DNA of 64,000 bases from a virus, in the IMG/VR virus record IMGVR_UViG_3300045996_000252, positions 1,310-65,309 of that record, one strand, 5' to 3'. This document shows, piece by piece, positions 109-35,452 of the stretch (the stretch's first letter is position 1; the number at the start of each line of letters is the position of its first letter). The translations under genes were made by a program, and so were the position numbers. The notes beneath the pieces were generated by a model. That model was not told the origin of the DNA, made no database searches, and saw nothing but the letters and a program-made list of their open reading frames with translations.

Positions 109-115
109 ATGAATT

Positions 116-190
116 TGGTCAAGGTGTACAGAATCGAACTGTATCCACATGCTCCCAAAGCACGTGTGCGGCCACTACACCACACCAAGA
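116..190 (-). tRNA. tRNA, anticodon loop reads TGG (Pro?); acceptor stem has 2 T-T mismatches
   Basis: T-arm tacag-aatcgaa-ctgta at 127-143. CCA is encoded. Anticodon loop rc is TTTGGGA. Confidence 0.5.
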
Positions 191-267
191 TGGTACCATG
201 TACGAGATTCGAACTCGTATTCTCCTGTTTGAAAGACAGGCTTCCTAAGCCGTTAGAAGAACATGGC
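191..267 (-). tRNA. tRNA-Glu(TTC)
   Basis: T-arm acgag-attcgaa-ctcgt. Anticodon arm cctgt-ttgaaag-acagg. CCA is encoded. Confidence 0.75.
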
Positions 268-272
268 ATGAT

Positions 273-348
273 TGGTAGCCCGCACCAGATTCGAACTGGT
301 GATCTTCACCTTGAGAGGGTGACGACTTTGCCGCTTGTCCAGCGGGCC
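273..348 (-). tRNA. tRNA-Glu(CTC)
   Basis: T-arm accag-attcgaa-ctggt. Anticodon arm tcacc-ttgagag-ggtga. CCA is encoded. Confidence 0.7.
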
Positions 349-351
349 ACG

Positions 352-642
352 CTAATTGTTGATGCGAGCGTGAACCTCACGCACTGCATCAGTTACTTCT
401 TGTACGTCAGCATCACCGAATCGGTTGATCGACTCTGCGATACACGATCCTCTGCATCGTGCAAGAGAAAGGTCTAACGTTTCTGTAAGGATGACTGTAG
501 GCACTCTACGCTTGTCGGTGTCATGATGCGTACGTCGCTCGTACATCTTCATGATCTTGAATCGCTCAACTTCATCAGCACGAGCGCCGGTTGCCGGTGT
601 GCCTACGAAGTTTACGAATGTCTCAGAGTACGCTGTTGCCAT
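352..642 (-). CDS. hypothetical small protein (97 aa) embedded in the tRNA array
   Basis: Internal Met (MATAYSETFVNF...) of the minus ORF 352..687 starts at 642 with a GGGGA RBS-like motif upstream. Codon usage is plausible. The upstream part of the ORF overlaps a tRNA and was excluded. Confidence 0.4.
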   Translation of the reverse strand: MATAYSETFVNFVGTPATGARADEVERFKIMKMYERRTHHDTDKRRVPTVILTETLDLSLARCRGSCIAESINRFGDADVQEVTDAVREVHARINN

Positions 643-658
643 GTAATCCCCTTTGTTT

Positions 659-736
659 TGGTGGAGGCGTGGAGAATCGAACTCCAATTTTGCGGGTGCA
701 AACCGCCCGTGTAGACACCACTAGCACTACACCCCC
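659..736 (-). tRNA. tRNA, anticodon probably TGC (Ala?)
   Basis: T-arm tggag-aatcgaa-ctcca at 670-686. Acceptor stem is 7 bp with G-U pairs. CCA is encoded. Confidence 0.6.
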
Positions 737-808
737 ACATATGGTGTTCGTTTCGTGAACCACTCGTCGGGCTGGTATACCGAAGGTCTGTTTGCGTCAG
801 ACCGCGTT

Positions 809-885
809 TGGCTGGAAGTGAAGGAGTCGAACCTTCAAACGCATGGTTCAAAGCCATACTGCTTTACCAGTTTGCATAACTTCCA
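809..885 (-). tRNA. tRNA-Gln(TTG)
   Basis: T-arm gaagg-agtcgaa-ccttc. Acceptor tggaagt/acttcca is perfect. Anticodon loop rc is CTTTGAA. Confidence 0.75.
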
Positions 886-894
886 ACGCGAATA

Positions 895-970
895 TGGTGT
901 CGCCACACCGGATCGAACGGTGACCTCAAGGGCTTCAACCTAGCGTACAGACCAACTATACGATAGCGAC
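895..970 (-). tRNA. tRNA-Phe(GAA)
   Basis: T-arm caccg-gatcgaa-cggtg. D-arm and acceptor mapped. Anticodon loop rc is TTGAAGC. Confidence 0.7.
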
Positions 971-975
971 ATGTT

Positions 976-1050
976 TGGCTGCGCAGACTTGGATTCGAAC
1001 CAAGATTGCCGGATTCAGAGTCCGTCTTCCTACCATTAGAAGATCACGCA
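976..1050 (-). tRNA. tRNA-Gln(CTG)
   Basis: T-arm cttgg-attcgaa-ccaag. Anticodon loop rc is CTCTGAA. The acceptor register is slightly uncertain. Confidence 0.6.
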
Positions 1051-1055
1051 ATGTG

Positions 1056-1131
1056 TGGCGGTCCCCAAGAGATTCGAACTCTCTGACTCTTGATTGACAA
1101 TCAAGCACCGATACCCTTTGGCTTCGGGACC
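1056..1131 (-). tRNA. tRNA-Asp(GTC)
   Basis: T-loop attcgaa at 1072-1078. Anticodon arm cttga-ttgacaa-tcaag. Confidence 0.7.
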
Positions 1132-1148
1132 ACGCTAATAAGGTTGTT

Positions 1149-1226
1149 TGGTACAGCAGACAGGATTCGAACCTGCACAGCATGCTTGGAAGGCACGAAT
1201 GCTTGACCGTTGAACATCACTGCTGC
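1149..1226 (-). tRNA. tRNA-Gly(TCC)
   Basis: T-loop attcgaa at 1165-1171. Acceptor acagcag/ctgctgc. Anticodon loop rc is CTTCCAA. Confidence 0.7.
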
Positions 1227-1233
1227 ACGTATA

Positions 1234-1310
1234 TGGTCAGGGGCAACGGATTCGAACCGATGCTGCTGGCGTCACAAGCCAGAGTGCTAGGCCACTAACA
1301 CTAGCCCCTA
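1234..1310 (-). tRNA. tRNA-His(GTG)
   Basis: T-loop attcgaa at 1250-1256. Anticodon arm ctggc-gtcacaa-gccag. Confidence 0.75.
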
Positions 1311-1315
1311 ATGAT

Positions 1316-1391
1316 TGGCGCGCCGCAAAGGAATCGAACCCTCACCTACGGGCTTCGAAGGCCCGTGTACTATCCGTTATACGAACGGCGC
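1316..1391 (-). tRNA. tRNA-Arg(TCG)
   Basis: T-loop aatcgaa at 1332-1338. Anticodon arm cgggc-ttcgaag-gcccg. Confidence 0.65.
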
Positions 1392-1397
1392 ATGATT

Positions 1398-1472
1398 TGG
1401 CAGGACGACTCGGATTCGAACCGAGAATAGCAGTTTTGGAGACTGCCGTGATAGCCGTTTCACTATCGACCT
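1398..1472 (-). tRNA. tRNA-Trp(CCA)
   Basis: T-arm ctcgg-attcgaa-ccgag. Anticodon arm gcagt-tttggag-actgc. Confidence 0.75.
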
Positions 1473-1478
1473 ATGATT

Positions 1479-1555
1479 TGGTCGGTACCGTGTGAATCGA
1501 ACACACCTTCACGTGCTTATCAGGCACGCCCTTTCCACCAGACAGGCAGATACCG
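1479..1555 (-). tRNA. tRNA-Ile(GAT)
   Basis: T-arm gtgtg-aatcgaa-cacac. Anticodon arm cgtgc-ttatcag-gcacg. Confidence 0.65.
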
Positions 1556-1625
1556 AAGGCTGCGGCTGACGCACTCCTTGTGCGCCACGTAATCCTCCCG
1601 TGCATAGGAGGGCCACAGAAATGTT

Positions 1626-1700
1626 TGGAGAGCCGAGTCGGGATCGAACCGACACCCTTGAGGGTAAGAACCTCCTGCACCACCGTTGTGCTACCGGCCC
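1626..1700 (-). tRNA. tRNA-Lys(CTT)
   Basis: T-arm gtcgg-gatcgaa-ccgac. Anticodon loop rc is TTCTTAC. Confidence 0.65.
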
Positions 1701-1705
1701 ATGTA

Positions 1706-1780
1706 TGGCGTCCCACACAGGAATCGAACCTGCATCGTATCCTTCGCAGGGATACATCCTATCCGTTGAACGAATGGGAC
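1706..1780 (-). tRNA. tRNA-Arg(GCG)?
   Basis: T-loop aatcgaa at 1722-1728. Anticodon arm tatcc-ttcgcag-ggata. Confidence 0.6.
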
Positions 1781-1786
1781 AATGTT

Positions 1787-1860
1787 TGGTGAGTCCGGTA
1801 GGGATCGAACCTACGACCATGTGCTTAAAAGGCACTTGCGACTACCGCTGCGCCACGGAC
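1787..1860 (-). tRNA. tRNA-Lys(TTT)
   Basis: T-arm gtagg-gatcgaa-cctac. Anticodon loop rc is CTTTTAA. Confidence 0.7.
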
Positions 1861-1867
1861 CCATGTT

Positions 1868-1953
1868 TGGCTGGCATGATAGGAGTCGAACCTATACGTA
1901 TCTTTCAACGCGTGGTTAACAGCCACGTGCGGCTACCATTTCGCCACATGCCA
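1868..1953 (-). tRNA. tRNA-like, 86 nt, anticodon arm reads GTT (Asn?) but carries a 15-nt variable region
   Basis: T-arm atagg-agtcgaa-cctat. Acceptor tggcatg/catgcca is perfect. Anticodon arm cgtgg-ttaacag-ccacg. The 15-nt insert between T-arm and anticodon arm is atypical for Asn. Confidence 0.5.
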
Positions 1954-2423
1954 ACGCTAATACGAGGGTTCTTACGTAGGAATATACCCACAACCTACAC
2001 ATGTAATGTGAGTAGTTTTACCCCATACTCAGGGGTCATATGACAGGATTGTTGGTTCCTGCAAGGCCGGTAACGATCCAATTAACAGTTAGATGACCGT
2101 CCAACTCACGCCGGGTTCCACCCTCACGCTTCGACTTTGGTAAGTCTTGCACAATCCTTACGGTCCCATACCTATGTATTACTTCCGGGGTGGCTGTTAC
2201 ACCACTTGCGCTTTTTACGCTACGTGCCCCGCCTACGCCTCGTTAGAAACGTTATTAGCGGTACATATGTCTGAGGGTTATAAGCCCTCATTATCAAATC
2301 GACGGTTCAGAACCAAGACTTCACCGACAACCCTGCTCAAGCGTCTTACTTACGTGTCGCAAGTGCAGTCGCGAGTTGCACGTGTCCACGACCTCCATCC
2401 GTCTATACCGGACGCTCCTGATT

Positions 2424-2510
2424 TGGTGCCTTGGGAGAGATTCGAACTCTCGTACCCCGAAGGGGACTGGTTTACAGCCAGCCTGCTTTATCCTCTTGCA
2501 TACCTTGGCA
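2424..2510 (-). tRNA. tRNA-Tyr(GTA), class II
   Basis: T-arm gagag-attcgaa-ctctc. Variable arm cccc-gaa-gggg. Anticodon arm ctgg-tttacag-ccag. Acceptor stem has 2 A-A mismatches. Confidence 0.65.
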
Positions 2511-2514
2511 TGAT

Positions 2515-2589
2515 TGGCGACCCTACAAGGATTCGAACCTTGTCCTAAGGCTTAGAACACCCATATGCTGTCCGTTACACTATAGGGCC
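2515..2589 (-). tRNA. tRNA, isotype undetermined
   Basis: T-arm caagg-attcgaa-ccttg. Acceptor gacccta/tagggcc. I could not fold the anticodon arm cleanly. Confidence 0.5.
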
Positions 2590-2594
2590 ATGTA

Positions 2595-2679
2595 TGGCGG
2601 AGACAGAGAGAGTCGAACTCCCACAACCTTTCGGTCATCAACGGGTTCAAACCGCATAAGCACGCCAATGCGTGTCTCC
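2595..2679 (-). tRNA. tRNA-Ser(TGA), class II
   Basis: T-loop agtcgaa at 2611-2617. Acceptor ggagaca/tgtctcc is perfect. Long variable arm. Anticodon loop gttcaaa. Confidence 0.65.
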
Positions 2680-2688
2680 GCGCTAGTA

Positions 2689-2752
2689 TGGACGCCATGT
2701 ATCTGCTTCGAAAAGACTCCGGTGGCATAGCCACGGGGATACTCCGCGTCCG
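2689..2752 (-). other. truncated tRNA-like element (about 62 nt; acceptor-like ends but no canonical T-arm)
   Basis: The ends ggacgcc/cgcgtcc pair. It occupies the slot between two tRNAs with the same atg...tgg punctuation. No TTCGAA T-loop is present. Confidence 0.3.
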
Positions 2753-2759
2753 TATATGT

Positions 2760-2835
2760 TGGTGCAAGTGGCGAGAGTCGAACTCGCGTTCCCCTACTTG
2801 GCAAGCAGGTATGTTGGCCGCTACACCACACATGC
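2760..2835 (-). tRNA. tRNA-Gly(GCC)
   Basis: T-arm gcgag-agtcgaa-ctcgc. D-arm and anticodon arm mapped. Anticodon loop rc is TTGCCAA. Confidence 0.7.
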
Positions 2836-2890
2836 ACAGAATTCAGTTGTTAACGCGGCGTTGCCAGTTGCCGCTCCGTTTGTTGTTACT

Positions 2891-2919
2891 ACTATAGCAG
2901 GGCTGTCAAGGCTTGTCAA
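2891..2919 (-). promoter_or_regulatory. sigma70/SigA-like promoter internal to the tRNA array, firing leftward
   Basis: On the minus strand: TTGACA (rc of 2914-2919), then 17 nt, then TATAGT (rc of 2891-2896). A second TTGACA (rc of 2904-2909) lies only 7 nt from the -10 box. Confidence 0.6.
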
Positions 2920-2937
2920 CCCCTAATTTTGAGAGTG

Positions 2938-3025
2938 TGGCGGATAGTGCAGGATTCGAACCTGCGGTACCTTGCGGTACACTTAGGTAGCAACCAAGCG
3001 CTTTCGTCCACTCAGCCAACTATCC
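2938..3025 (-). tRNA. tRNA-Ser(GCT), class II
   Basis: T-arm gcagg-attcgaa-cctgc. Acceptor ggatagt/actatcc is perfect. Long variable arm gtac...gtac. Anticodon arm cttag-gtagcaa-ccaag. Confidence 0.7.
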
Positions 3026-3121: not shown

Positions 3122-3568
3122 GTCCTTGTTATGCTTTACCTCTAGTTCACGGCGCTGCGCACCGAATTCTCGGTCCTCACGCTGGTTCTGAGTCTCTGCT
3201 ACTTCTTGGATATCTACTTCACGGCCCATTAACTTATTAATCGTGCGTAATTTCATGAAGGGCACATACCCAACGGCGATTAGCACGATGACAAAGAGAA
3301 CGCCGCCAAAGTCTGCATCTGGCGGAACACCATTAAATGTATCACGCCAAAATCCAATTGTCAACAGGGCAAAGAACGCACTGGCGAGCGCGTTGATGAT
3401 GGTCCCGCCTGTTAATGTTTGCAGGATGGCATTGCGAGGGCGATCCTCGTCAGCCTTCCAGATTCTAAATACCTTCCACGCGGAAGGCAGCGCCAAGATA
3501 GGCATGAGACTCAAGATAGCCACGCCCGCAAGGAACAATATGTCTGTTGCTGTAGTTGTTAATTCCAT
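3104..3568 (-). CDS. membrane protein with about 4 TM segments (holin-like?)
   Basis: 154-aa ORF. Hydrophobic stretches ILFLAGVAILSLMPILALP, IINALASAFFALLTIGFW and VLFVIVLIAVGYVPF, followed by a charged C-terminal tail. Confidence 0.45.
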   Translation of the reverse strand: MELTTTATDILFLAGVAILSLMPILALPSAWKVFRIWKADEDRPRNAILQTLTGGTIINALASAFFALLTIGFWRDTFNGVPPDADFGGVLFVIVLIAVGYVPFMKLRTINKLMGREVDIQEVAETQNQREDREFGAQRRELEVKHNKDLTASE

Positions 3569-3571
3569 TGC

Positions 3572-3754
3572 TTACCTCTGAGATTGCCGCACGACAACCT
3601 CTTGTGCCCTACGGGCTTCTTTTAGTATCTGTTCTATACGACCACGCTGCATAGATGAGCGTTGTACCTCGTCACGAGCAGGGGACAGTACCTCCTCGTT
3701 GGAACTCTTGTCTGTTGCCTTGGTCTTCACAAAAAACTCCCACGGCCAGCGCAT
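3572..3754 (-). CDS. hypothetical protein (60 aa)
   Basis: Small ORF packed tightly between its neighbours; basic and charged. Confidence 0.3.
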   Translation of the reverse strand: MRWPWEFFVKTKATDKSSNEEVLSPARDEVQRSSMQRGRIEQILKEARRAQEVVVRQSQR

Positions 3755-4056
3755 TACTTATTACCCTTCTCGGCCCGGATTCGCTCTAGGAGCCGATCTT
3801 CTCGATCCTTGTCGATTTCCATTTGGTTGCGGGCTTCCCATGCGTCGGCCATCCTTTCCATACCATCATTAGCAGACTTCAAAGCCGCAGTAAGTTCCCT
3901 TATCTGCACCCTAAGTTCGTCTACTATGGCTGACGCGTACACCCATCCACGGGCGAAGGCCATGACTGCCAACGTCAGCGCTCCTACAAGACCACCAGTT
4001 GACACACCATTTAGGATGAGATTGATGAAGTCAATATTTGGAGTTGTAGGGTCCAT
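3754..4056 (-). CDS. membrane / coiled-coil protein (holin- or spanin-like?)
   Basis: 100 aa. One TM segment (GGLVGALTLAVMAFA) and a charged helical C-terminus. Confidence 0.4.
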   Translation of the reverse strand: MDPTTPNIDFINLILNGVSTGGLVGALTLAVMAFARGWVYASAIVDELRVQIRELTAALKSANDGMERMADAWEARNQMEIDKDREDRLLERIRAEKGNK

Positions 4057-4352
4057 TATAAACTAGGCTCCGAGTCGAACTTACCATCACGAATGTCAAT
4101 GTCGCCAGAGGCGAACACAGCCGTGATCTTATAGGCATGAGTGCCTGACTGAGCAGCAGAAATTCTAATGAAATAGAATCCGGCTGCCTCCCGAACGAAA
4201 TCTACGCTCGGGTACGTTATGGTTGTCAGGGTGTCGTCTGGATTGGACACAACGCACACAAGAGTGCTAGGGTCCAATGCCGCCCCTGAGTCGATATCGG
4301 TGTACGCCAAGTATAACCTCAGCGTTTCACCAGTCTCGATGATCTTTCGCAT
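4056..4352 (-). CDS. hypothetical protein
   Basis: 98-aa ORF. ATGA start/stop overlap with its neighbours. Confidence 0.4.
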   Translation of the reverse strand: MRKIIETGETLRLYLAYTDIDSGAALDPSTLVCVVSNPDDTLTTITYPSVDFVREAAGFYFIRISAAQSGTHAYKITAVFASGDIDIRDGKFDSEPSL

Positions 4353-7300
4353 TACTTAACCTCAATCCTTTCAGATTGCCCCGGTACTCTGATTCTACGT
4401 CCACCAGCACCGGCTCTCGCCCACTCACTGTTGCCACCCTGATTCCAAGCATTGTCGTATCCACGGTCGTGAATCTCCTCGCCTGAATGGCCCGGATTGT
4501 AGAATCCAATCTGCGCATCAGCCGTAAACGAACCGATGTTTGTTTCGATTGACACGATTAATGCGTCGGCAGTAAACGAGCCACTGTTCGTGCGCTGTAT
4601 TACAGCGTGTGCGGTGAAGGCACCAAGCACGCTGTTCTGGATAACGGCGTCTGCGGTGAAGTCGTACACCGCTGCCGTCTGGATAAGCGCATCAGCCGTG
4701 AATGAACCAGACTCAGTACGCTTGATGATGCTGTTCGCACTGAATGAGCCAGTGTTAGGAGCGAGGATGATTGCGTCCGCAGTGAAGTCGTCTGACTCCG
4801 TTCTGCGAATGGTGCTATCAGCCGTAAACGTACCGTTAAACGTACGCTTGATGATTGCATCGGCCACGAATGATGATGCGAATGTTCTTCGGATCACGGC
4901 GTCCGCTACGAACGATCCACCAAGGATGCCGGTTATGTTAGCATTAGCAGTGAACGAGCCGGTAACTCTCTGGCTGATGATTGCATTAGCCGTGAAGTTT
5001 CCTGCGGTCGTCTGCTTGATAACCGCGTCCGCTGTGAACGTGCCTACGTTGATCGTTTCGATCATGGCGTCTGCGGTAAAGCCAGCCTCGTATGCACGCT
5101 TGATGTTAGCGTCTGCCGTAAACGCACCCGTGATGATGCGCTCTATCATTGCATCGGCGCTGAACGATCCGGCTACAGGTGCGCGAATAACAGCATCCGC
5201 ACTGAATGATCCCGCTTCTGTTCGACGCACAATTGCATTGGCGGTAAATGACGCTGACTCGGTACGCCGGATGATCGCGTTAGCGCTGAATGATCCGGCT
5301 ACAGGAGCCTTGATTACAGCGTCAGCCGTGAATGAGTTGAGCGCAGCACCAGAGATTGTAGCATTAGCAGTGAATGATCCTGCTACAGCGTTACGTATTA
5401 CTGCGTCTGCGGTAAATGATCCGAACGTGTTGGCCCGAATGATCGCATCGGCTATGAATCCAGACGATACTGCCGCACGGATTACTGCGTTAGCAGTAAA
5501 CGATCCGGTTGGAGTAGTTCGAATACGAGCATCAGCGGTAAATGACCCTGCTTCTGTTCGTCGCACGATAGCGTCTGCGGTGAAGGCCGCAGGAACAGCA
5601 GCGCGGATAACAGCGTCAGCCGTAAATGAATTCGTAGCGGCTCCACTGATGGTAGCATTGGCCGTAAACGACCCGCTCTCTGTGCGTCGAACGATAGCAT
5701 CGGCACTGAATCCGCTTGTGGTACGAGCGAATATATTTGCATCCGCAGTGAATGAGCCAGCAACAGTACGCCGGATTATGGCGTCAGCACTGAATGTACC
5801 GCCTACAGCATTGCGGATAACGGCGTCTGCCGTCAGGTTGCCGCTGTAAGTTTGTCGCACAACCGCATCAATAGTAAAATTGCCTGCGACTGCTGATTTA
5901 ATGACGGCATTTGCTGTTAGTGATGCACTCACCGGGGCGCGAATTACCGCGTCGGCGCTGAAAGATGCTCCTACAGGTGCCCGAATGATCGAGTCTGCTG
6001 TGAATGAGCCTGATATGGTACCGGCAGAGCCGATCAGGTTGTTCCACGTATCAGACCAGTCGCCCCACTTGATTATCTTAGCGTCGGCGGTCAGTGACGC
6101 AGTAATCGCAGCGCGAATGATCGCATCTGCGGCAAAGTTGCCGCTGTACGTCTGCCGCAATACAGCGTCGGCTACAAATGAGCCTGTTGCGCTGTTGCGA
6201 ATTACGCCGTCTGCCGTGAATGATGATGCTACAGCATTACGCACCACTGCGTTAGCGGTGAATGATGATGCAACCGTCTGCCGAATGATTGAATCAGCCG
6301 TAAACGAACCAGTAGCAACGGTGCTAATGATAGCATTGGCCGTAAATGTAGCACTCTCGGTGCGGCGAATGATGCTGTCTAGAGTTAATGATCCGAAGCC
6401 CGCACCAACGATGTTAGCGTTTGCCGTAAACGATCCTGCGACCGCATTCTTGACAACCGCATCTGCCGTAAACGATCCGGCTACAACACCACGGATGATC
6501 GCTACTGCGGTGAACGAGCCTGTTACTCGGCTAGACAGAGTAGCATCAGCCGTGAAGGTCGCGCTAACACGCTGGCTGATAACAGCGTTGGCCGTAAAGG
6601 ATGATGCGACTGCGTTCTTGATAACCGCGTCAGCGGTGAATGATCCAGTAGGCGAACCACCCGCAGGGTTAACGGCAAACATGATACCCGCCGCATCGGT
6701 CTGTGGGGAAACATTATAAAATGCAGCAGGGTTAGTAACATCTTCCGTCAAGATGTTAAAGCCATGAGGGCCAGTTATCTTTGTGGCGTCAGAACCTCCA
6801 CCGGCGCTAGACGGAGGCTTGCTTCCTGTGGAATCAAGAATCGTCCACCACCCGGCAGGATTGCTAAATTGATCTTCATAAACTGTTGTTCTAACACCCT
6901 CAACTGCCGAAGCAACAACTAGCGCTTGACCCGCAAGCGCAGTGCCGCTCATGGTGGTAGTGATTGACGTTGAATTCACAACAGGTTTAACTGGCGCAGG
7001 AGTCGTTGCTATGGGTGTAGATTGGTTCACGCCACGGAGAATGATAGCGCTCATCGTCGCCTTTTCTCCGTTGGCTAAGTTGCTTATATTAACATGGGGG
7101 ATGGTGCCAGCAGTTTGAACAAACGTATACGCAACACACAAGAAAACCTGATCGTTAAAAGCATCACGAACCTGTGTCCACGGCCCTAAAACGGCGGTTC
7201 CGGTAGCCTGCCAGTTAGGATTAAGGTCGTTCATACCAACCTGATTGATTGCAAGGGCGGCAATGACCATATCGCCAGCCTGTACGTTAATCAATAGGTT

Positions 7301-7444
7301 GTTATATGGCCCTAAACCACCGTTCATCTGCCAAGAAGCCTGAGCGGTTTGAACGTTAGTGCCGCCACCAGAACCGTTATCTCCTGCGGCCCCACCTACA
7401 TACTGAATAGCCATTATGACCCCGCTCTCACGCGGCGGAACCAC
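4352..7444 (-). CDS. giant tandem-repeat protein (tail fibre-like); about 50 copies of a 14-aa repeat 'SFTADAVIRxxVxG'
   Basis: 1030-aa uninterrupted ORF. The non-repeat N-terminal 250 aa is followed by 42-bp periodic repeats. Antisense ORFs on the plus strand are repeat artefacts. Confidence 0.7.
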   Translation of the reverse strand: MVPPRESGVIMAIQYVGGAAGDNGSGGGTNVQTAQASWQMNGGLGPYNNLLINVQAGDMVIAALAINQVGMNDLNPNWQATGTAVLGPWTQVRDAFNDQVFLCVAYTFVQTAGTIPHVNISNLANGEKATMSAIILRGVNQSTPIATTPAPVKPVVNSTSITTTMSGTALAGQALVVASAVEGVRTTVYEDQFSNPAGWWTILDSTGSKPPSSAGGGSDATKITGPHGFNILTEDVTNPAAFYNVSPQTDAAGIMFAVNPAGGSPTGSFTADAVIKNAVASSFTANAVISQRVSATFTADATLSSRVTGSFTAVAIIRGVVAGSFTADAVVKNAVAGSFTANANIVGAGFGSLTLDSIIRRTESATFTANAIISTVATGSFTADSIIRQTVASSFTANAVVRNAVASSFTADGVIRNSATGSFVADAVLRQTYSGNFAADAIIRAAITASLTADAKIIKWGDWSDTWNNLIGSAGTISGSFTADSIIRAPVGASFSADAVIRAPVSASLTANAVIKSAVAGNFTIDAVVRQTYSGNLTADAVIRNAVGGTFSADAIIRRTVAGSFTADANIFARTTSGFSADAIVRRTESGSFTANATISGAATNSFTADAVIRAAVPAAFTADAIVRRTEAGSFTADARIRTTPTGSFTANAVIRAAVSSGFIADAIIRANTFGSFTADAVIRNAVAGSFTANATISGAALNSFTADAVIKAPVAGSFSANAIIRRTESASFTANAIVRRTEAGSFSADAVIRAPVAGSFSADAMIERIITGAFTADANIKRAYEAGFTADAMIETINVGTFTADAVIKQTTAGNFTANAIISQRVTGSFTANANITGILGGSFVADAVIRRTFASSFVADAIIKRTFNGTFTADSTIRRTESDDFTADAIILAPNTGSFSANSIIKRTESGSFTADALIQTAAVYDFTADAVIQNSVLGAFTAHAVIQRTNSGSFTADALIVSIETNIGSFTADAQIGFYNPGHSGEEIHDRGYDNAWNQGGNSEWARAGAGGRRIRVPGQSERIEVK

Positions 7445-8676
7445 GTAGTGTTACTTAGCGGCGAGGGCACAGTGAAGCGTGCTTGTCGGCCAGCGTGAGC
7501 GACAGGTACGCCGTTTGAAGGCATAGGCGTCCACGCAGTGCCGTTGTAGTATTCCCAACCAGTTGCGTCGGGGTACGAGCGATAAACCAACAGGTTTCCT
7601 GAGTCAAACGTGTTGACTGTATCAAGGTGTATCTCAAAATACATATCGCCCGTAGCCGCAGGAGGCATATTGAAAGTGAATGTAGGAGTAGTATCTGTTA
7701 CGGCTTCTGCGTTCGCGGGCGGCGCTATCCATGAAGCACCTTCGGGTACGAACGCGCCAATCTCGGCATCAAGTGTGAACGAGCCTGAGACTACGCTGCT
7801 GATTACGGCGTCAGCGGTAAAGGCTGCCGTTTCCGTGCGTCGAATAATGGCGTCGGCAGTAAATGAGCCAGTGGCTACCGTGCTGATCGTCGCGTCAGCG
7901 CTGAACGATCCAGTAACAGTGTTGCGGATTACCGCATCAGCAGTAAAGGAACCAGCAGCCGTGTTACGAATGATAGCGTCAGCGGTGAATGATCCAGTAA
8001 TAGTGCTAGGCGGCGTAGCCCAATTGAACGACCGGATTGCCGCTCCCCAATCGCGGGAGGTCATACCAGTCTTGCTTAGGCCGTTAGTGCTGCCTGCGGT
8101 TGGAGCGATCAGATACGCGCTCGATACTGTTACGTTGCTGTTGGCAGGGTTACCAGTGGTACCGGCTCTTTGTCCGTTAGTTGAAGGGATAACCCATGTA
8201 CCAGCAGTATCACCAACCGGGCCTTCCGTGCCAACGACACCCACACGCACTGATTCTGTACCGCCCACGATTGGGCCGGTAGCAGCGGTGCTAGCGGCTG
8301 TGCCAGGGCCGGTGTTCTGTGCTGACTCAGCATCGGTCGTGAACCATGTCTGCCCGCCACCCGTAACGCTTGAGCGAAATGAGTCAATGACCATAGCCTT
8401 AGCAGTAAGCGCTGCGGCCCACGTAGCAGTAACCGTACGAGTAGCAGTAGCGTCAGCCACACACCAAGCAAGACGTGTTCTCACACCTGCGCCGACCACT
8501 GCCGTTCCAAGCGTTAGTTGTTGGGTGCCCCAAAATACGCTATCTAGAACCTGATCATCATATGCAAGAGAGACAACAAGCAGATCACCAGCATTCAGAG
8601 TGACTGATGCTGCTGCCAGCGTCGTACCGCTTGTTTTGCTTACCGCTTGCGGACGTGCGGTACGGGTTACAGCCAT
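7414..8676 (-). CDS. repeat-containing tail fibre-like protein, paralog with a 'GWEYYNGTAW' C-terminal domain
   Basis: 420 aa. Six GSFTADAxI repeats, then a C-terminal domain homologous to the C-terminus of 9651..10532. Confidence 0.6.
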   Translation of the reverse strand: MAVTRTARPQAVSKTSGTTLAAASVTLNAGDLLVVSLAYDDQVLDSVFWGTQQLTLGTAVVGAGVRTRLAWCVADATATRTVTATWAAALTAKAMVIDSFRSSVTGGGQTWFTTDAESAQNTGPGTAASTAATGPIVGGTESVRVGVVGTEGPVGDTAGTWVIPSTNGQRAGTTGNPANSNVTVSSAYLIAPTAGSTNGLSKTGMTSRDWGAAIRSFNWATPPSTITGSFTADAIIRNTAAGSFTADAVIRNTVTGSFSADATISTVATGSFTADAIIRRTETAAFTADAVISSVVSGSFTLDAEIGAFVPEGASWIAPPANAEAVTDTTPTFTFNMPPAATGDMYFEIHLDTVNTFDSGNLLVYRSYPDATGWEYYNGTAWTPMPSNGVPVAHAGRQARFTVPSPLSNTTWFRRVRAGS

Positions 8677-8709
8677 AAGGTTGAGTCCTTTAGTGTACGA
8701 ACTATTGAG

Positions 8710-9099
8710 TTAGTTCGACTCTACGAACCCCATTTGCAGTAGCAGCGGAGCGTAGAGTGGTTCGTCGCCCATTTCAATCGTACCATTCGGTAGAATCCAA
8801 ATGACATACGGGCGGCGACGTTTCTGCTTATAGCCAATGGCATATACGCGAAAGCCGGGGACATTCTCCCCGCCCGCTCCAATGGAACCGAACACTCGGC
8901 TCTTGATAATCGGCTTGGCCCCTTCGGGCACCTGACACGCTACCACTGGCAGTGTAGTATTTCCAGTCGGGATCAGTGAAATCTCTTTCGTTTGATTCAA
9001 CTGCTCTTTTGCAGCCCATCCTTTTTCATCTAGGCTGAATTTGTGGTTGCTGCCGTCATTGAGTTGAAGGGCAACCTCGTATTTAAAGGGTAGTGCCAT
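8710..9099 (-). CDS. hypothetical protein
   Basis: 129-aa ORF in the tail-fibre region. Confidence 0.4.
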   Translation of the reverse strand: MALPFKYEVALQLNDGSNHKFSLDEKGWAAKEQLNQTKEISLIPTGNTTLPVVACQVPEGAKPIIKSRVFGSIGAGGENVPGFRVYAIGYKQKRRRPYVIWILPNGTIEMGDEPLYAPLLLQMGFVESN

Positions 9100-9126
9100 T
9101 GAGTTGACTTTCCTTCCTGAACCTTC

Positions 9127-9636
9127 TTAGGTTTCGTCGTACTGGTAGTTAATTGTTTCCTGAGTCCACGGTCCAGCCGTCGCACCCGCTGCGGGCTGCA
9201 ACTGCAACTGTAGAGACTTCGTTACGTTGTTCAACGTGCTGTATGATGCAGTGTCCCAAGTTCCCTTGGCACCTGACGTACGAGTGTACGCGTCGATATC
9301 GGCTGCCAACGCCGTAGCCGAAGGTGTCACGCCACCTGTACCCGGCGTTGCGCCACCAGTACCAACCTGCTCCTTAGCACGAAGGGCAACGTTTGCCTGA
9401 CCCGTACCGTCAGTCCACCACAAGAAGTTCGTTACAGCGTTGGCCGGTGCTGCATCAATCTTCAAGCGAAGGTTCTTAACGAACGAGTTAGTGCCTGCGG
9501 CAACAGGGTTGTTCGCACGAGTGGTAGCGTCCGTAGCAGCGCTGTCGATGCTTAGGAAACTGATACCAGTCTGTGCAGTTGATTCTGTTGCTGCGTTTGC
9601 TCCGGTGTATACCCGGACTGAAATGGTTGCTGCCAT
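9127..9636 (-). CDS. hypothetical protein (minor tail?)
   Basis: 169-aa Ala/Thr/Gly-rich ORF. Confidence 0.4.
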   Translation of the reverse strand: MAATISVRVYTGANAATESTAQTGISFLSIDSAATDATTRANNPVAAGTNSFVKNLRLKIDAAPANAVTNFLWWTDGTGQANVALRAKEQVGTGGATPGTGGVTPSATALAADIDAYTRTSGAKGTWDTASYSTLNNVTKSLQLQLQPAAGATAGPWTQETINYQYDET

Positions 9637-9650
9637 TTACTTTCCTTTCC

Positions 9651-10532
9651 TTACTTCGCCCTAATGCGGCGATACCACGTACCACGCTCCAACGGAACGG
9701 GCAGTGTAAACCTAGCGAGGTTCCCAACAGCGGTGTTGGGTACGCCAGATGTGAGCATTGACACCCACGCGGTGCCGTTGTAGTATTCCCATCCTGTAGC
9801 ACTCACGCTTGAGTCATAGAATCGGTAATTACCTGTGTTGAATGCTGCCGTTCTGTCGAACTCTAGTTCGAATGAAACCGCTCCGCCACCAAGGGCAGGA
9901 ACGGTAAACTCCACGGCAGGCGTCATGTCGGTCAATAGTTCTCGGTTGCTAGGTGTAGCCCACACGGGACCGGGCACCGCGTTGATCTGAGCATCCATAG
10001 TGAACGAGCCACCATAAACGCGCTCGATCATGGCGTTGGCGGTAAACGATCCACTGTAGACAGTAGGAATGATGCCTGTAGGAATTTCCAACTCGGCCCA
10101 TGACACAAACACGTCGCGCCGTACGCCGGGGTTGCCACCTACGGTACCTGTTACTTCAAACTCGACCGACAAGGTAGCCCATTCAGCGCCAGAGATAGCG
10201 CCTGTGATAGTCTGCGCCTGTTGAGTCCATACCTCAGTGATTAGGTTATGCGTGAAGGTGTGCAACACGGTTGCGCCCTTCTTAAATCGCACGATAAGGT
10301 TTCTATCGTTGCCACCAGACAAATCCTTGGCATATGCGTATCGCAACGTCTTGGTTCCAGCCTGCGGAGGCAATCCGGTAGACAAGCCAATAGCGCATAT
10401 GCTATTGTTGCCAGAGCCAACCGAAATGTATGAGAGGTCGTCGCGCACTGCGTCGTTGATCTGTCCATACAGCGGCGTCGGGAACCAAGTGCCTACGGCT
10501 ATGTCACTGTTGGGTCGAATGAACTGAGCCAT
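9651..10532 (-). CDS. tail fibre-like protein with two GSFT repeats and the shared C-terminal domain
   Basis: 293 aa. Contains 'SGSFTANAMIERVYGGSFTMDAQI'. Its C-terminal 100 aa align by eye with the C-terminus of 7414..8676 (TGWEYYNGTAW...RFT.P.PL...W.RR.RA). Confidence 0.55.
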   Translation of the reverse strand: MAQFIRPNSDIAVGTWFPTPLYGQINDAVRDDLSYISVGSGNNSICAIGLSTGLPPQAGTKTLRYAYAKDLSGGNDRNLIVRFKKGATVLHTFTHNLITEVWTQQAQTITGAISGAEWATLSVEFEVTGTVGGNPGVRRDVFVSWAELEIPTGIIPTVYSGSFTANAMIERVYGGSFTMDAQINAVPGPVWATPSNRELLTDMTPAVEFTVPALGGGAVSFELEFDRTAAFNTGNYRFYDSSVSATGWEYYNGTAWVSMLTSGVPNTAVGNLARFTLPVPLERGTWYRRIRAK

Positions 10533-10535
10533 CAG

Positions 10536-12710
10536 TTAAAATCCTGCGTAGAAGGAGCACGCAACGCTGAACCAGCCGCTGCCGCCCGGTGCGGTGTTAG
10601 GAATAACATCGCCTGTGGTATTAACTCTTAGTTCGGCCCACTGACCTACTGCCGCGCTGGCAAAAATTAAGTTAATGCCCGGTCGGAATCCGGCTGGCAA
10701 CTGAAATGCCGTAGTGCCTATCGTTCCACCAGCAATCAAGCCCTCCATATGAACATAGCCCAATGCATCCTTGCGATATCTAACGGGAGTAAAATTTAAG
10801 TCAGCGTAAACGCCCCAACCGCTAGCGTAACCGGAGGTCACGTTTGTCCAGCCTATCTCGGCAGGATTATCTACATAGGCCGCGTAGCCCATGTCTTGAA
10901 ACATAACCGTATCAATGTAAAGCGCACCAGTGCTAGTGCCACCATACGAGTTGGTTGCTATTATGCCAGCATTTGCGTCAGAGGTAATGGTGTAGTATTT
11001 TTCGAAATACTCCCAAGAGTTGTTTGTCCAAGTTCCAGACCTCAACACGCCTAACTGTCCAGTGACTCCTTCTAGAGCAATTCCCGCACCAGATTGTGAA
11101 GTAAACGATCCAGACGTTCTCATTCTGAATGATAGTCTATACGTTCTGCCCGCATATACAGTAACATTTTGCCCAAGGAATCCATAGGCGATTCCTGAAC
11201 CAGTGTATCTTAATGAATAGACACCTTCGTAGGCGGTATCAGTAACAGCAGCAGCCGATGTAGTAGCCGAACCACCAATAGTAGGCCATCCTGCCAATCC
11301 CTGCTCAAACGATCCGTTCCTGATAAGGTTTCGTCCACCGGGAGTAGACGGCATTGATCCAGAATCCAGCCGAACCATTCTGAAAGTAGCACGCAGTCTC
11401 ATGCTTGATGATGCAGAGTAGCCATAGTCAATGTTCGATCCGGCGTCATGACCGAATGTGGTGTGAAGATAGTCGCCCGGTTGTAGATATACAATCGTGC
11501 TGGCTTGAATGATGCCACCGTGTGCAGTTGAACCCTGATTAACAGGGATTCTAGTAGCGGCCTCATCTACGCCATTCTTTAGAATAACCAGTTCTCTATA
11601 GCCAGTGAATGTAGGATTGGTATGATGGCCCGAGGCAATTACATAGTACAATCCACCTAGTCCTGCGGGAACGGTCAGCCTACCGTTGTTTGTAGTGGTG
11701 TCGTGGAACCCATCGGTGTCCATGACCTCAGAGTTGTAAGGGATGAGTGTGGCCGAACCGCTATTGCATACGATGGTTGTATCATGGTAAGCGATTACAC
11801 CGATGCCTTGCCCTACCTTGCCAGAGTCCAATTTGGCAAGCATGAACTTAGAGTTAGACGTTATGTTAATAGTTGCGCCCTGCGACTGGTAAACATATGC
11901 TTGCACATAGTCTCCTGCTGCTAGGTCTACAACCGCCGAAACAGTATTGTAAGTTCCTACGCCAGTGACGGTAGCGTTTTGCCAGTGTGAGACAACGTTA
12001 GAGTTCTGATCACCATTCTTTGTAATTATCAACCCACGAAAGCCAGCAGGAGTTACCTGACCTTCAAAGCCCACGTTAGCCGTAACCATATACTTGCCAC
12101 CGAGTCCAGCAGGAATAGTTAGTCGAGTCAATGCCCCCGAAGAATGGAATGAGTCGGTATCAAAAGTCTCTGCGTCCCAAGAGATAGGCGCATATGTGAT
12201 GTTGGTCAATGGCTGTGTTGCAGACAAGGTTAGACTAGCGCCAATGAACGCCTGCGGCACCGAACGTATGGTAGCATCGCCACCCACGACAGACACGGTA
12301 TCAGGCGGGAAGATCAACTTGCTTACGGTAGCGTTGGGTGTACCGTCAGTCTCGGCTGCGACAATCGTACCTCCTGTCAGGCCGGTCACCTGATTGTTTC
12401 GCACGTCTAGGAATCCACCGGCTACAGGGTTAAGCACGGCCTCGACCCAACGATTGCCTCGCTTGTCGATAGCCACACGAACCGGGTCTAGTAGGTTCGG
12501 CTTCATGCCGTTCTCTAGCCGGAACCCTGTAGATGGAACGGTCTCTCCGGGCAGGTATACACTACACGTGTTGGGCGGCGTACCAATGCTTGCCACCGTG
12601 CCCCATAGGATATCCACTCCCGCGCCAGAGCGCACCAAGGCGTTGATCCGCTCGTCTACTACGTTCTTGATGATTCTGTAAGCGTCGTTGAATGAAAATC
12701 CACTAAGCAA
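10536..12710 (-). CDS. minor tail protein with a duplicated receptor-binding-like domain and a CBM-like module
   Basis: 724 aa. Two copies of 'FDTDSFH..G.LT.PAGLGG.Y'. C-terminal 'NLIRNGSFEQGLAGWP' is typical of carbohydrate-binding jelly-roll modules. Confidence 0.5.
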   Translation of the reverse strand: MLSGFSFNDAYRIIKNVVDERINALVRSGAGVDILWGTVASIGTPPNTCSVYLPGETVPSTGFRLENGMKPNLLDPVRVAIDKRGNRWVEAVLNPVAGGFLDVRNNQVTGLTGGTIVAAETDGTPNATVSKLIFPPDTVSVVGGDATIRSVPQAFIGASLTLSATQPLTNITYAPISWDAETFDTDSFHSSGALTRLTIPAGLGGKYMVTANVGFEGQVTPAGFRGLIITKNGDQNSNVVSHWQNATVTGVGTYNTVSAVVDLAAGDYVQAYVYQSQGATINITSNSKFMLAKLDSGKVGQGIGVIAYHDTTIVCNSGSATLIPYNSEVMDTDGFHDTTTNNGRLTVPAGLGGLYYVIASGHHTNPTFTGYRELVILKNGVDEAATRIPVNQGSTAHGGIIQASTIVYLQPGDYLHTTFGHDAGSNIDYGYSASSSMRLRATFRMVRLDSGSMPSTPGGRNLIRNGSFEQGLAGWPTIGGSATTSAAAVTDTAYEGVYSLRYTGSGIAYGFLGQNVTVYAGRTYRLSFRMRTSGSFTSQSGAGIALEGVTGQLGVLRSGTWTNNSWEYFEKYYTITSDANAGIIATNSYGGTSTGALYIDTVMFQDMGYAAYVDNPAEIGWTNVTSGYASGWGVYADLNFTPVRYRKDALGYVHMEGLIAGGTIGTTAFQLPAGFRPGINLIFASAAVGQWAELRVNTTGDVIPNTAPGGSGWFSVACSFYAGF

Positions 12711-13869
12711 GATTGATAACTCGTTTCATACTGATCTTCTGGCGGCTTGTAAGCAACGGCACATTGAACGTGCTCACGATGAAGTTGCTAGCCAGTTCGG
12801 CGTAATTAGGTTCGATGACCTCTAGTACGTCATTGCCCTCAAGGGCGGGATGACAGATTGCTTCCATGTTGACCGTCTGGCCGATGATTCTCGTAGTGGT
12901 GAACAGGCTGCCTGCGGCCAAGTCCACGGACTCCTGAGAAGCCAGCACGCCAGATACCATGCGGTACACACGGTCACCAATGCGGTCGATATTGGTAGGG
13001 CTAAGAGGGTCAGTGTCCATTCGCTCTGCGGTGAACGGGGACTCCTCGATGCCAGTACCCGTAACGTGTACGTGATTGTAGAGGCGCTCGTCGTCGGTCA
13101 CGGATCGAATCAGGTAGGCTAGGTCGCCCGCCTCATCACCATATCCGTATGACCATACGGTAGCACGGCTGATATCAGATCGAGTATCCTCCGTACGCAA
13201 TACGCCCATTGGGTCGAAGAAAATGTCGATTGAATAGTTGTTGCAAACCTTTAAAAGTGCGTCACCTTTAACGTCACCCTTCTCAAACGCAATAGCCACT
13301 TGCAGGCGGTCTGAGTTTGCTGTACGACTATCTAGCGGGTCTAGAACCATATTTGTAACACCTGACTCATCTGCAAGCGTACGTACGAAGTCATTAATCA
13401 GCATGCCAGCAGGGAAAGTGCGAGGCTCGGGGAACTGCGCCTTGTGGAACTTTTTCCATAGGTCTGAGCCAGATAGCACAACCGTAGACATGCTGCGCTC
13501 GACCAATGTTTCGGTCTTGTCCACCATGAAAGTGCCCACAGGAACGTATTCGATTACGGGATTTTCCACGCTCTCGCTGATCACCAGTCCGCGCCACGGA
13601 CGAATGATACGGTTAACGTAGAACAATCCACCCCACTGTCCAGTAGGACTGAACTCACCGTCCTCGTTTAGCAAGGACATGGCAAGCGTGCGTCGAGTAC
13701 CTCGTGTGATATCTACGTCCACCACGCCGTCAATGAAGCCTTTATCCGGCCCGCTGCCACCTAGCACCACCACGGGGTTAAAGTCCGTGTCGAGAATCTC
13801 TAGTTTGCAGCGTACCTCTTGTATAGGACGCCGAAGCGCCTGCTTAAAAGACTCTGATGTAGGCCACAT
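12703..13869 (-). CDS. minor tail protein
   Basis: 388-aa ORF, by position in the tail module. Confidence 0.4.
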   Translation of the reverse strand: MWPTSESFKQALRRPIQEVRCKLEILDTDFNPVVVLGGSGPDKGFIDGVVDVDITRGTRRTLAMSLLNEDGEFSPTGQWGGLFYVNRIIRPWRGLVISESVENPVIEYVPVGTFMVDKTETLVERSMSTVVLSGSDLWKKFHKAQFPEPRTFPAGMLINDFVRTLADESGVTNMVLDPLDSRTANSDRLQVAIAFEKGDVKGDALLKVCNNYSIDIFFDPMGVLRTEDTRSDISRATVWSYGYGDEAGDLAYLIRSVTDDERLYNHVHVTGTGIEESPFTAERMDTDPLSPTNIDRIGDRVYRMVSGVLASQESVDLAAGSLFTTTRIIGQTVNMEAICHPALEGNDVLEVIEPNYAELASNFIVSTFNVPLLTSRQKISMKRVINLA

Positions 13870-14576
13870 TAAACGACTTCAACCCATCCTGTAGAAATCT
13901 CTAGGTGCCCGCCAGTTCGATACTTGAAACCGGGGGCGTCGAACTCAACAAACCATACGTCACCGAATGGTGACTTCATAAGGTGCGGTCCCTTGGTGTT
14001 CTTCAATCGCTCCATGAACGCCTTAGTATCAGCAACCGCACTAGTGTCTGCAAGGGCAGTGATGCTACCCTCGTCACCAAGCACATTGCCACGCACTACG
14101 CGCTTGCGGTTAGATGACAGCGGTTCGAAGACTTCTTGCTGCACCACGGATGAGTGCTCCTCAGAGATAACGTTCAGTTCCAGTGCGATAGAAACGAAGT
14201 TGCCCATCAGGATCATGAACCAAGCATCGGTTACGAGCGCGATAGTTACCATGTCGCCCTGATTGCTCTCTAGCGGAATGTCTCCCACAACGGCCTTGTA
14301 CTGTGTTACAATGTACTCATACTGCACCGTCTGGCCCGCACTATCATCGCGATATTCGGTGATGGTCGGGTCGGTGATATCCTTAAGGATCGTGAACAGT
14401 TGCTCTCCTACCACGCGCCGATAGATTCGATAGGTTACGAAATCGGCGGTGGTCAAGGTTGACTGGTCCCAATTTAACTGGATCGCTGATGATTCTTCAA
14501 GCGCGGTGCCGCTAAATCCTGTAATCGTAGGAGGCGGCGTCCACGCGGTTGTAACTACTTGTTCTGCGGTAGGCAT
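13869..14576 (-). CDS. minor tail protein (distal tail protein-like by position)
   Basis: 235-aa ORF between the large minor tail protein and its downstream neighbours. Confidence 0.35.
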   Translation of the reverse strand: MPTAEQVVTTAWTPPPTITGFSGTALEESSAIQLNWDQSTLTTADFVTYRIYRRVVGEQLFTILKDITDPTITEYRDDSAGQTVQYEYIVTQYKAVVGDIPLESNQGDMVTIALVTDAWFMILMGNFVSIALELNVISEEHSSVVQQEVFEPLSSNRKRVVRGNVLGDEGSITALADTSAVADTKAFMERLKNTKGPHLMKSPFGDVWFVEFDAPGFKYRTGGHLEISTGWVEVV

Positions 14577-35431: not shown

Positions 35432-35452
35432 GCGGGCCTCCTATGCTACGAA

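Follow-up and report, generated by a model that had tools for sequence, protein, structure and literature searches.

Our analysis of the sequence indicates that a 14-residue protein repeat carried by three genes of this virus is real, widespread in metagenomes and previously undescribed. We lean towards the view that the three gene products, which we call P1, P2 and P3, are modular, rod-shaped proteins (fibres or adhesins) on the virion surface of an uncultured siphovirus-type phage, built on a solenoid shaft whose length changes slowly. In each, a globular N-terminal domain that differs in kind from one protein to the next would precede a shaft of 14-residue units, capped by an Ig/FN3-like beta-sandwich of ~110 aa in P2 and P3 and running out into a short tail in P1; the shaft would serve as a spacer that keeps a binding module at a distance from the particle. 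In support of a binding role, homologs combine the shaft with Laminin_G_3, CBM_4_9 and GH16 domains. Features are on the minus strand of the window, by which we mean the whole 64,000-nucleotide stretch of DNA that was analysed, unless the plus strand is named.

Three proteins on a common repeat

P1 spans 4352..7414 and has 1020 aa counted from the ATG at 7414. A mechanical call of the open reading frame (4352-7444) starts at a GTG at 7444 and gives the 1030 aa of the preliminary description; the real start is likely the ATG, which overlaps the stop codon of P2 as TAATG. The roughly 50 copies of a 14-aa unit that had been described for this frame are present in strict register, since we find 50 motif matches whose spacing is exactly 14 residues except at two insertions. 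The protein begins with a globular domain of ~256 aa (6647..7414), an ORFan for which no relatives were found, followed by 14 units of 14 aa, or 42 nt (6059..6646), an insertion of 16 aa (…KWGDWSDTWNNLIGSAGTIS…; 6011..6058) that interrupts the array, a further 36 units (4493..6010) with a 2-aa insertion ahead of the last one, and a C-terminal tail (…YNPGHSGEE…RIEVK; 4355..4492). The array extends over ~4493-6646, in agreement with the 4.5 to 6.7 kb given earlier, and the consensus that we derive, G-S-F-T-A-[D35/N13]-A-[V/I]-I-[R/K]-x-x-x-x, with core positions 84-87% self-identical, matches the motif SFTADAVIRxxVxG first proposed. The C-terminal tail is common to P0001 and to a 1704-aa protein of the related phage locus L006. 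A W.DWSD.W element in the 16-aa insertion also occurs near the N-terminus of a 748-aa repeat-only protein of L003, another related locus, which suggests a fusion origin for P1.

P2 (7414..8676, 420 aa) and P3 (9651..10532, 293 aa) carry six and two units respectively, as had been noted. In P2 an N-terminal domain (aa 1-222, 8011-8676) precedes the six units (aa 228-311, 7744-7995) and a C-terminal beta-sandwich (aa 312-420, 7417-7743); in P3 a distinct N-terminal domain (aa 1-150, 10083-10532) precedes the two units (aa 161-188, 9969-10052) and a C-terminal domain of the P2 type (aa 189-292, 9654-9968). This C-terminal domain of ~110 aa, already singled out in the preliminary description as common to the two proteins, aligns with 49% identity across 142 aa (E=5e-38). 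In the AF2 model of P2 it is a confident seven-strand beta-sandwich, in that respect comparable to the Ig-like/FN3-like accessory domains on phage particles (the T4 Hoc type); the N- and C-terminal domains have pLDDT 80-95, and the six repeat units come out as coil with pLDDT <50. A Foldseek search of the PDB with the whole P2 model returned nothing significant. The domain recurs on many different cassette proteins, 56 of those collected.

The description of P1, P2 and P3 as three paralogs is correct for the shaft and, in P2 and P3, for the C-terminal domain. It does not extend to the N-terminal domains, among which neither jackhmmer nor hhalign detects homology (motifs that by eye seemed to be shared by all three were dropped on this ground), and a search of 5.8 billion proteins at E≤0.001 finds nothing related to the P1 N-terminal domain. 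By all appearances P1, P2 and P3 are mosaics in which N-terminal domains of three unrelated kinds sit on a common shaft. In the window the P3 N-terminal domain is combined with two units and the P2-type C-terminal domain, and the P1 N-terminal domain with 50 units and the P1 tail; the 1704-aa protein of L006 joins the P3 N-terminal domain to ~47 units and a P1-type tail. Since solenoid units would be interchangeable, such an array would tolerate recombination that swaps the N- and C-terminal modules.

A homolog search with P1 gave 173 matches, and among metagenomic proteins the repeat family comprises 2,411 representative clusters at E≤1e-3 (545 at E≤1e-30), defined at 50% identity and containing proteins of up to ~3,700 aa. 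Megablast and tblastn searches of the region, P1, P2, P3 and a neighbouring 169-aa protein against 50,697 cultured-phage genomes produced no match, and the closest isolate match to the TerL of the window phage is 28% identical. Pfam, PHROGs and NCBIfam have no family for P1-P3 or for the neighbouring 169-, 129- and 98-aa proteins, and their curated tail-fibre, tail-spike, receptor-binding or decoration families gave no significant profile match for P1-P3; in Pfam, P1 drew three sub-threshold, spurious matches alone, and P2 and P3 none. Sequence searches of the PDB found no relative, P1 as a query for related viral-contig loci found none either, and an exact-sequence look-up of P1 returned no record. 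A literature search yielded nothing relevant on the repeat, and "FTADA" turned up in unrelated text only.

Divergence of the repeat DNA

At a lag of 42 the DNA shows an autocorrelation of 0.50, compared with 0.20-0.29 for the lags on either side. The preliminary description went further, to a near-perfect 42-bp periodic array that would be an obvious substrate for slipped-strand variation, and here the data contradict it. Tandem Repeats Finder, one of the checks that had been named, reports 0 arrays on 3500-11500, a null result that exposed how far the array has diverged at the DNA level. The units of P1 have a mean pairwise identity of 51%, with a maximum of 64% for adjacent units and 81% for any pair; the copies found by a repeat search of the DNA match their reference at just 60-73% of positions; and no exact repeat in the 2.2-kb array is longer than 18 nt, a length shared by sites 1.8 kb apart. 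Among units, identity at codon positions 1, 2 and 3 of the minus-strand frame is 0.59, 0.66 and 0.30. The third-position value, set against the other two, indicates that the protein sequence of the repeat is kept by purifying selection, and the near-random third positions show that the units have not been homogenised recently. The same values identify the minus strand as the coding one, so that the plus-strand open reading frames (437 aa at 4536..5849, and others at 5880-6719 and 7610-8554) are artefacts of the repeat, as had been supposed.

Thus the repeat is old and degenerate in DNA and does not work as a length switch that slips rapidly; with units too diverged and synonymous sites saturated, slipped-strand variation at the P1 array is very unlikely. 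One could still imagine a contingency locus, in which slippage or frequent unequal recombination switches the number of units and with it fibre length and host range, since a tandem 42-nt periodicity does exist and unit number does vary between relatives. However, the P1 array does not contain near-identical head-to-tail DNA units, and given the low identity of adjacent units, the short and distant exact repeats and the near-random third positions, we find such a locus hardly credible. The objection that the array reflects assembly collapse or expansion is moot, because units ~51% identical assemble unambiguously, and we rejected an assembly artefact.

On an evolutionary timescale the proposal of a tunable length does survive: the L003 ortholog of P2 has 4 units against 6 in the window, and the count in members of the family ranges from about 4 to over 78. 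In the surface rods that we favour, shaft length would be set by the number of units and would change slowly, as units are duplicated, deleted or recombined in frame, and not by slippage during replication. More generally, a periodic protein sequence is no sign of phase variation until the identity of the underlying DNA has been checked.

Predicted fold of the shaft

The earlier suggestion of a beta-solenoid is supported by structure prediction, at moderate confidence only (five models of pLDDT 48 to 69, with a partly self-derived MSA): the 14-residue units are predicted to stack into a flattened beta-solenoid. Its core would be made of F3, A5, A7 and I9, with G at position 1 and D/N at position 6 suited to turns. 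The most likely reading is that one unit makes one strand, so that two units would make one coil. At a rise of 4.8 Å per coil, 50 units would then form a rigid rod of ~12 nm, or of ~24 nm if one unit were one coil. The self-identity of P1 at lags of 14, 28 and 42 residues is 0.447, 0.454 and 0.476, and a weak 28-residue signal appears in 8 of 21 homologs, with no consistent 28-aa super-period in the sequence.

The outward-facing T4, D/N6 and V/I8 are also conserved, and this would fit an oligomer interface. Hence, in place of a self-contained monomeric solenoid, the shaft could adopt a homotrimeric fibre fold such as a triple beta-spiral or a triple beta-helix, and a monomer prediction cannot show a trimer. 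Indirect signs speak both for and against a trimer; we consider it rather unlikely, and the proteins would in that case still function as fibres.

How would a solenoid of this kind compare with known folds? The SufD/SufB core (PDB 1vh4, 5awf) is a flattened right-handed parallel beta-helix, and the similarity to it is one of fold only: the sequences are not alike, and Pfam gives no SufBD match for P1-P3. SufBD serves in the cytoplasm as a scaffold for Fe-S assembly; it is much shorter than the 50 units of P1, and it has flanking helical domains and a helix without a regular 14-residue repeat, whereas the flanking domains here are beta-sandwiches. CsgA, the RTX nonapeptide roll and the solenoid antifreeze proteins are two-sheet beta-solenoids or beta-rolls. 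Curli CsgA, however, has units of 19-23 aa with Q/N ladders, against 14 aa with SFTADAVI here, and the RMSD to it is high (7.9 Å); the RTX beta-roll has 9-aa GGxGxD calcium sites, and GSFTA[DN]A[VI]I[RK]xxxx holds no such motif. Neither Curlin_rpt nor HemolysinCabind in Pfam matches P1-P3. The P22/HK620-type tailspikes, phi29 gp12, K5 lyase and the bacterial TPS/autotransporter adhesins are beta-helical, with three strands per coil, irregular coils of ~20-25 residues, no strict sequence repeat, and no sequence family in common with P1-P3. Adenovirus fibre and reovirus sigma1 have triple beta-spiral shafts, with a ~15-residue repeat whose copy number sets the length, and a globular knob. Compared by description, P1-P3 resemble these shafts in having a short repeat whose copy number would set the length.

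The cassette and its place on the virion

P1-P3 belong to a gene cassette that, judged by its content in related phage loci, is conserved: a 169-aa protein, a ~130-aa protein, at least one protein ending in the P2/P3-type C-terminal domain, one giant repeat protein and a ~100-aa protein. The most conserved member is the 169-aa protein (9127..9636), with which its counterparts in L006 and L003 share 88% and 70% identity; the 129-aa gene (8710..9099) is kept beside it in L003, L006, L007 and L002. The 98-aa protein (4056..4352) follows P1 with a TAATG overlap of stop and start codons, as seen in the cassette operon, and is the positional equivalent of the ~100-aa BppU_N-like proteins that come after repeat genes in relatives. 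Those of L004 and L005 pass the PF10651 cut-off (E=7e-8 and 1e-7) and that of L001 falls below it (E=8e-4); the window protein has no Pfam match even at E≤1. A scan for promoters and terminators stayed at chance level. A profile of the 169-aa protein matches contigs of phage size that had been assigned to Patescibacteria, Lysinibacter, Thermotogae and Hodarchaeota MAGs, which we rejected as a guide to the host, these being too disparate and probably mis-binned.

In the window the operon runs from TerL through portal, protease, MCP, adaptor, tail tube, TMP and distal tail proteins to a 724-aa tail-tip or baseplate-like protein with a CBM_4_9 domain (10536..12710), immediately upstream of P3; the cassette follows, and after it come small membrane proteins, holin-like. 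The label "tail-fibre-like" of the preliminary description suits this position, after tape-measure, distal-tail and baseplate-like genes and before holin-like genes, which is repeated in three relatives (L006, L007 and the P0104 contig). It does not suit the other relatives, where the cassette lies at head, portal or capsid genes, nor the lack of matches to tail-fibre families. PBSX XepA/YomS-type proteins are encoded beside holins, and P1-P3 might, like them, be released or exported at lysis, or might degrade or bind glycans on the host envelope or biofilm, without being virion components; we regard this as quite improbable.

In L001, L004 and L005 the cassette is found between portal and prohead protease: the repeat genes of L004 and L005 precede an S78 prohead protease, with the 169-aa homolog directly following portal, and the N-domain genes of L001 lie between TerL and portal. 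In L003 the cassette comes directly after an HDPD decoration protein and a Phage_cap_E capsid gene. These arrangements speak for fibres of the head or neck, or for Hoc-like adhesins decorating the capsid, with the C-terminal Ig/FN3-like domain or the 169-aa protein as anchor. So does polarity, since in these proteins the conserved end is the C-terminus and the variable end the N-terminus; Hoc has a C-terminal capsid anchor, and most tail fibres have the opposite polarity. However, the window and its three relatives have the cassette after tail-tip genes and before lysis genes, the classical place of side fibres and receptor-binding proteins, and we judge a head or neck location unlikely. For a cassette whose place varies from genome to genome, gene order says little in either direction; "virion fibre" is a likely description and "tail" a tentative one. 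With the cassette near portal or MCP in L001, L003, L004 and L005, a tail location is not generalisable and may be wrong even here. For the rods that we propose, the tail tip would be the most likely attachment site in this phage, since its cassette stands at the end of the tail module.

A wider reading is possible, although taken as a whole we hold it to be doubtful. The "FTADA" unit would define a large undescribed beta-solenoid family of at least ~2,400 clusters, forming the shaft of a relocatable multi-gene fibre cassette, which would be specific to one lineage of uncultured phages, would also include a small Ig-like protein and could dock at different virion sites. The solenoid would then be a universal, recombination-tolerant adaptor through which unrelated N-terminal binding domains, the ORFan domain of P1 among them, could be exchanged, and it may be a substrate of glycosyltransferases that these phages encode beside it.

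Nothing in phage genomes is harder to predict than receptor-binding and other surface proteins, and it is mainly these that stand in the way of assigning hosts to uncultured phages. For a family that is wholly absent from present annotation resources, our analysis provides a recognisable motif of strict period, a neighbourhood signature and a predicted fold. The regular 14-residue unit would also be an attractive scaffold for the design of rods of defined length. For the family itself, ~2,400 protein clusters could move from "hypothetical" to "solenoid-shaft fibre/adhesin".

A repeat conserved as protein

Our analysis of the three neighbouring repeat proteins, P1 (4352-7414, minus), P2 (7414-8676, minus) and P3 (9651-10532, minus), bears out at the protein level what the preliminary description had reported: P1 has 50 units in a strict 14-residue register, P2 has six and P3 two, and P2 and P3 have in common a C-terminal domain (C-domain) of ~110 aa (49% identity, E=5e-38). 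The register of P1 has only two breaks, insertions of 16 aa after unit 14 and of 2 aa before the last unit. The unit has the consensus G-S-F-T-A-[D/N]-A-[V/I]-I-[R/K]-x-x-x-x, in which F3, A5, A7 and I9 hardly ever change, T4, D/N6 and V/I8 are likewise conserved, and positions 10-14 vary.

The DNA had likewise been described as a near-perfect 42-bp array, but Tandem Repeats Finder, the check proposed along with that description, finds no array, and the units have diverged: their DNA identity averages 51% over all pairs and is at most 64% between adjacent units and 81% in the best pair, and the longest exact repeat within the 2.2-kb array is 18 nt, its two sites lying 1.8 kb apart. By codon position, identity among units is 0.59 (first), 0.66 (second) and 0.30 (third). 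This pattern marks the minus strand as coding, so that the long plus-strand ORFs are by-products, as had been supposed. The units are thus old, and what is conserved is the protein sequence, not the DNA; slipped-strand mispairing, which had been put forward as a source of length variation, is for this reason not credible here. Collapse or expansion of the array during assembly is ruled out, since an assembler could not do this with units so diverged.

The repeat has no match in Pfam, PHROGs, NCBIfam or PDB and was not found in 50,697 GenBank phage genomes; no isolate is close to the phage itself (best TerL identity 28%). In metagenomes the repeat is common: a word-indexed search gave 173 matches, and in an exhaustive profile search 2,411 representative clusters matched at E<=1e-3, 545 of them also at E<=1e-30, with proteins of up to ~3,670 aa. 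The collected proteins have a median of ~18 units and a maximum of more than 78, and the 14-residue period is kept throughout the family. Among the homologs, Laminin_G_3, CBM_4_9 and GH16 occur as partner domains, which points to carbohydrate recognition.

Predicted fold of the shaft

How might the shaft, the run of units between N-domain and C-terminal end, be folded? A full-length AF2 model of P2 has confident beta-sandwiches at residues 1-220 and 330-420 and leaves the six units unstructured. Modelling from an in-register alignment of blocks of 16 units, taken from P1 and from 24 homolog arrays, predicts a solenoid, in which we have moderate confidence. The model superposes closely on SufD, and further structural matches are to two-partner-secretion and autotransporter helices, the RsaA S-layer, an antifreeze protein, RTX blocks and phage tailspikes. 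The sequence of the unit fits such a solenoid, with F, A, A and I alternating on one face of a strand, and D/N and G stand at fixed unit positions, residues that would suit turns. The outward face of the units is also conserved, which would be compatible with a trimeric fibre fold, beyond what a monomer model can show.

If the shaft is the predicted solenoid, its coil geometry is what we infer from the comparison with SufD, whose flattened helix has two strands in each turn. The close superposition, together with the pattern of one strand per unit, suggests two units per coil, while sequence autocorrelation gives no choice between one and two. The P1 rod would then be ~12 nm long, or ~24 nm at one unit per coil.

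Mosaic proteins in a late operon

The three proteins have the shaft in common, and P2 and P3 the C-domain, which is present in 56 collected proteins, but iterative search and profile comparison detected no relationship among their three N-terminal domains. The P2 N-domain is common, and in relatives it is often a stand-alone protein of ~232 aa without repeats. The P3 N-domain stands at the head of a repeat protein of 1704 aa in L006, the closest relative. For the P1 N-domain (256 aa, 6647-7414, minus) no relative was found at E<=0.001 among 5.8 billion proteins, and it is a true ORFan, though the rest of P1 is a member of a large family. The make-up of P1 suggests a fusion: the W.DWSD.W insertion within it, with all that lies downstream, corresponds to a 748-aa repeat-only protein of another relative, L003, in which the insertion sits near the N-terminus. 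In L006, a close relative with a 169-aa protein 88% identical to that of the window, the fibre genes have entirely different lengths and domain combinations, as would be expected of host-interaction genes.

P1-P3 lie within an extended late operon on the minus strand of a phage-like genome. Its genes stand in this order: large terminase (31324-32814), portal (29349-30674), a protease-like gene (28325-29356), the gene for an HK97/SU10-type major capsid protein (27444-28325), the GT4 glycosyltransferase gene described below, head-tail adaptor (24799-25344), tail tube (22818-23768), tape measure (1562 aa, 17338-22026) and three distal-tail genes (12703-17338). Just upstream of the packaging genes lie ThyX thymidylate synthase and a class I/II-type ribonucleotide reductase large subunit with a TSCPD domain (33978-37961, minus). 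Adjoining P3 upstream is a 724-aa protein (10536-12710, minus) that has both a CBM_4_9 domain (E=1e-12) and a stretch similar to a phi812 baseplate protein; it weakly matches tail-fibre regions of Pelagibacter and Staphylococcus phages and may be the primary receptor-binding protein of the phage.

Past this gene the order is P3, a 169-aa gene, a 129-aa gene, P2, P1 (4352-7414/7444) and a 98-aa gene, then two small membrane proteins resembling holins and a tRNA cluster. A TAATG stop/start overlap occurs at three successive junctions, 7414-7416 (P2/P1), 4352-4354 (P1/98-aa) and 4056-4058 (98-aa/100-aa), implying translational coupling along the cassette. Since the first of these joins P2 to P1, P1 most likely starts at the ATG at 7414 (MAIQYVGG…) rather than at an upstream GTG. 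The cluster, directly downstream of the structural and lysis genes, packs 21 tRNA genes into 32-3025 (minus), covering 16 amino acids with at least two isoacceptors each for Pro, Glu, Gln, Arg, Lys and Gly.

A cassette at differing positions

We compared eight genomic contexts. L006, L007 and the P0104 contig match the order in the window: tape measure, distal tail genes, genes for ~170-aa and ~133-aa proteins, N-domain and repeat proteins, and a ~100-aa gene. The repeat genes of L004 and L005 stand between portal and S78 protease, amid glycosyltransferase, methyltransferase and epimerase genes, with the 169-aa homolog directly after the portal; in L003 the cassette comes after the genes for the decoration and major capsid proteins; and in L001 N-domain genes lie between TerL and portal. 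There, a 795-aa protein (L001:4775-7162), whose N-terminal region by eye resembles the P2-type N-domain, carries a different tandem repeat of ~20 aa (VPLAASATGTSSGSAxLSG) and adjoins a stand-alone P2-type N-domain gene, suggesting that the cassette slot can take alternative shaft types.

In most of these phages a small protein comes after one giant repeat protein and at least one protein ending in the C-domain. This small protein is BppU_N-like in L001, L004 and L005; the 98-aa protein of the window has no demonstrable BppU_N likeness. In L007 an ORF similar to this 98-aa protein (12717-13031, E=1e-7) overlaps, in another frame, the annotated 3' end of a 1007-aa repeat gene (10001-13024), which may reflect over-extension of the gene call through stop-poor repeat, a frameshift or a sequencing error. 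Within the cassette the 169-aa protein (9127-9636, minus; also in L002-L011) is conserved best, and it has an invariant C-terminal motif, NWTQET.NYSYDE. The contigs that carry its homologs span 13-81 kb (three are 71-81 kb) and were assigned to MAGs of Patescibacteria, Lysinibacter, Thermotogae and Hodarchaeota, most likely by mis-binning of phage contigs.

A GT4 glycosyltransferase gene (25558-26790, minus) lies inside the head-tail structural operon of the window, and larger sets of GT2/GT4, methyltransferase and epimerase genes adjoin the repeat genes at L004:2814-7505 and 19827-21176 and at L005:3054-7556 and 18484-19764. Given glycosyltransferase genes in the operon and beside the repeat genes, the Ser/Thr-rich shafts or other virion proteins could possibly be glycosylated.

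What is shown is the repeat with its selection pattern and distribution, the mosaicism of the proteins, and the cassette; the best-supported reading of these is that P1-P3 serve as modular fibres or adhesins on the virion surface, with a beta-solenoid spacer whose length can evolve. The accessory cassette that encodes them varies in location among genomes, and in the window genome it lies at the tail end. Virion location and binding function are what we infer here, and attachment could be at the tail tip, or at the head or neck. On an evolutionary timescale the solenoid and the 'tunable length' of the preliminary description hold. Phage fibres and adhesins with beta-helical shafts are a known kind; what is new is a strictly periodic 14-residue sequence family without a curated model, the polarity of variable N-terminal modules against a conserved C-terminal cap, and a multi-gene cassette whose position differs between genomes. 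The family is of use in annotation and potentially in protein design.
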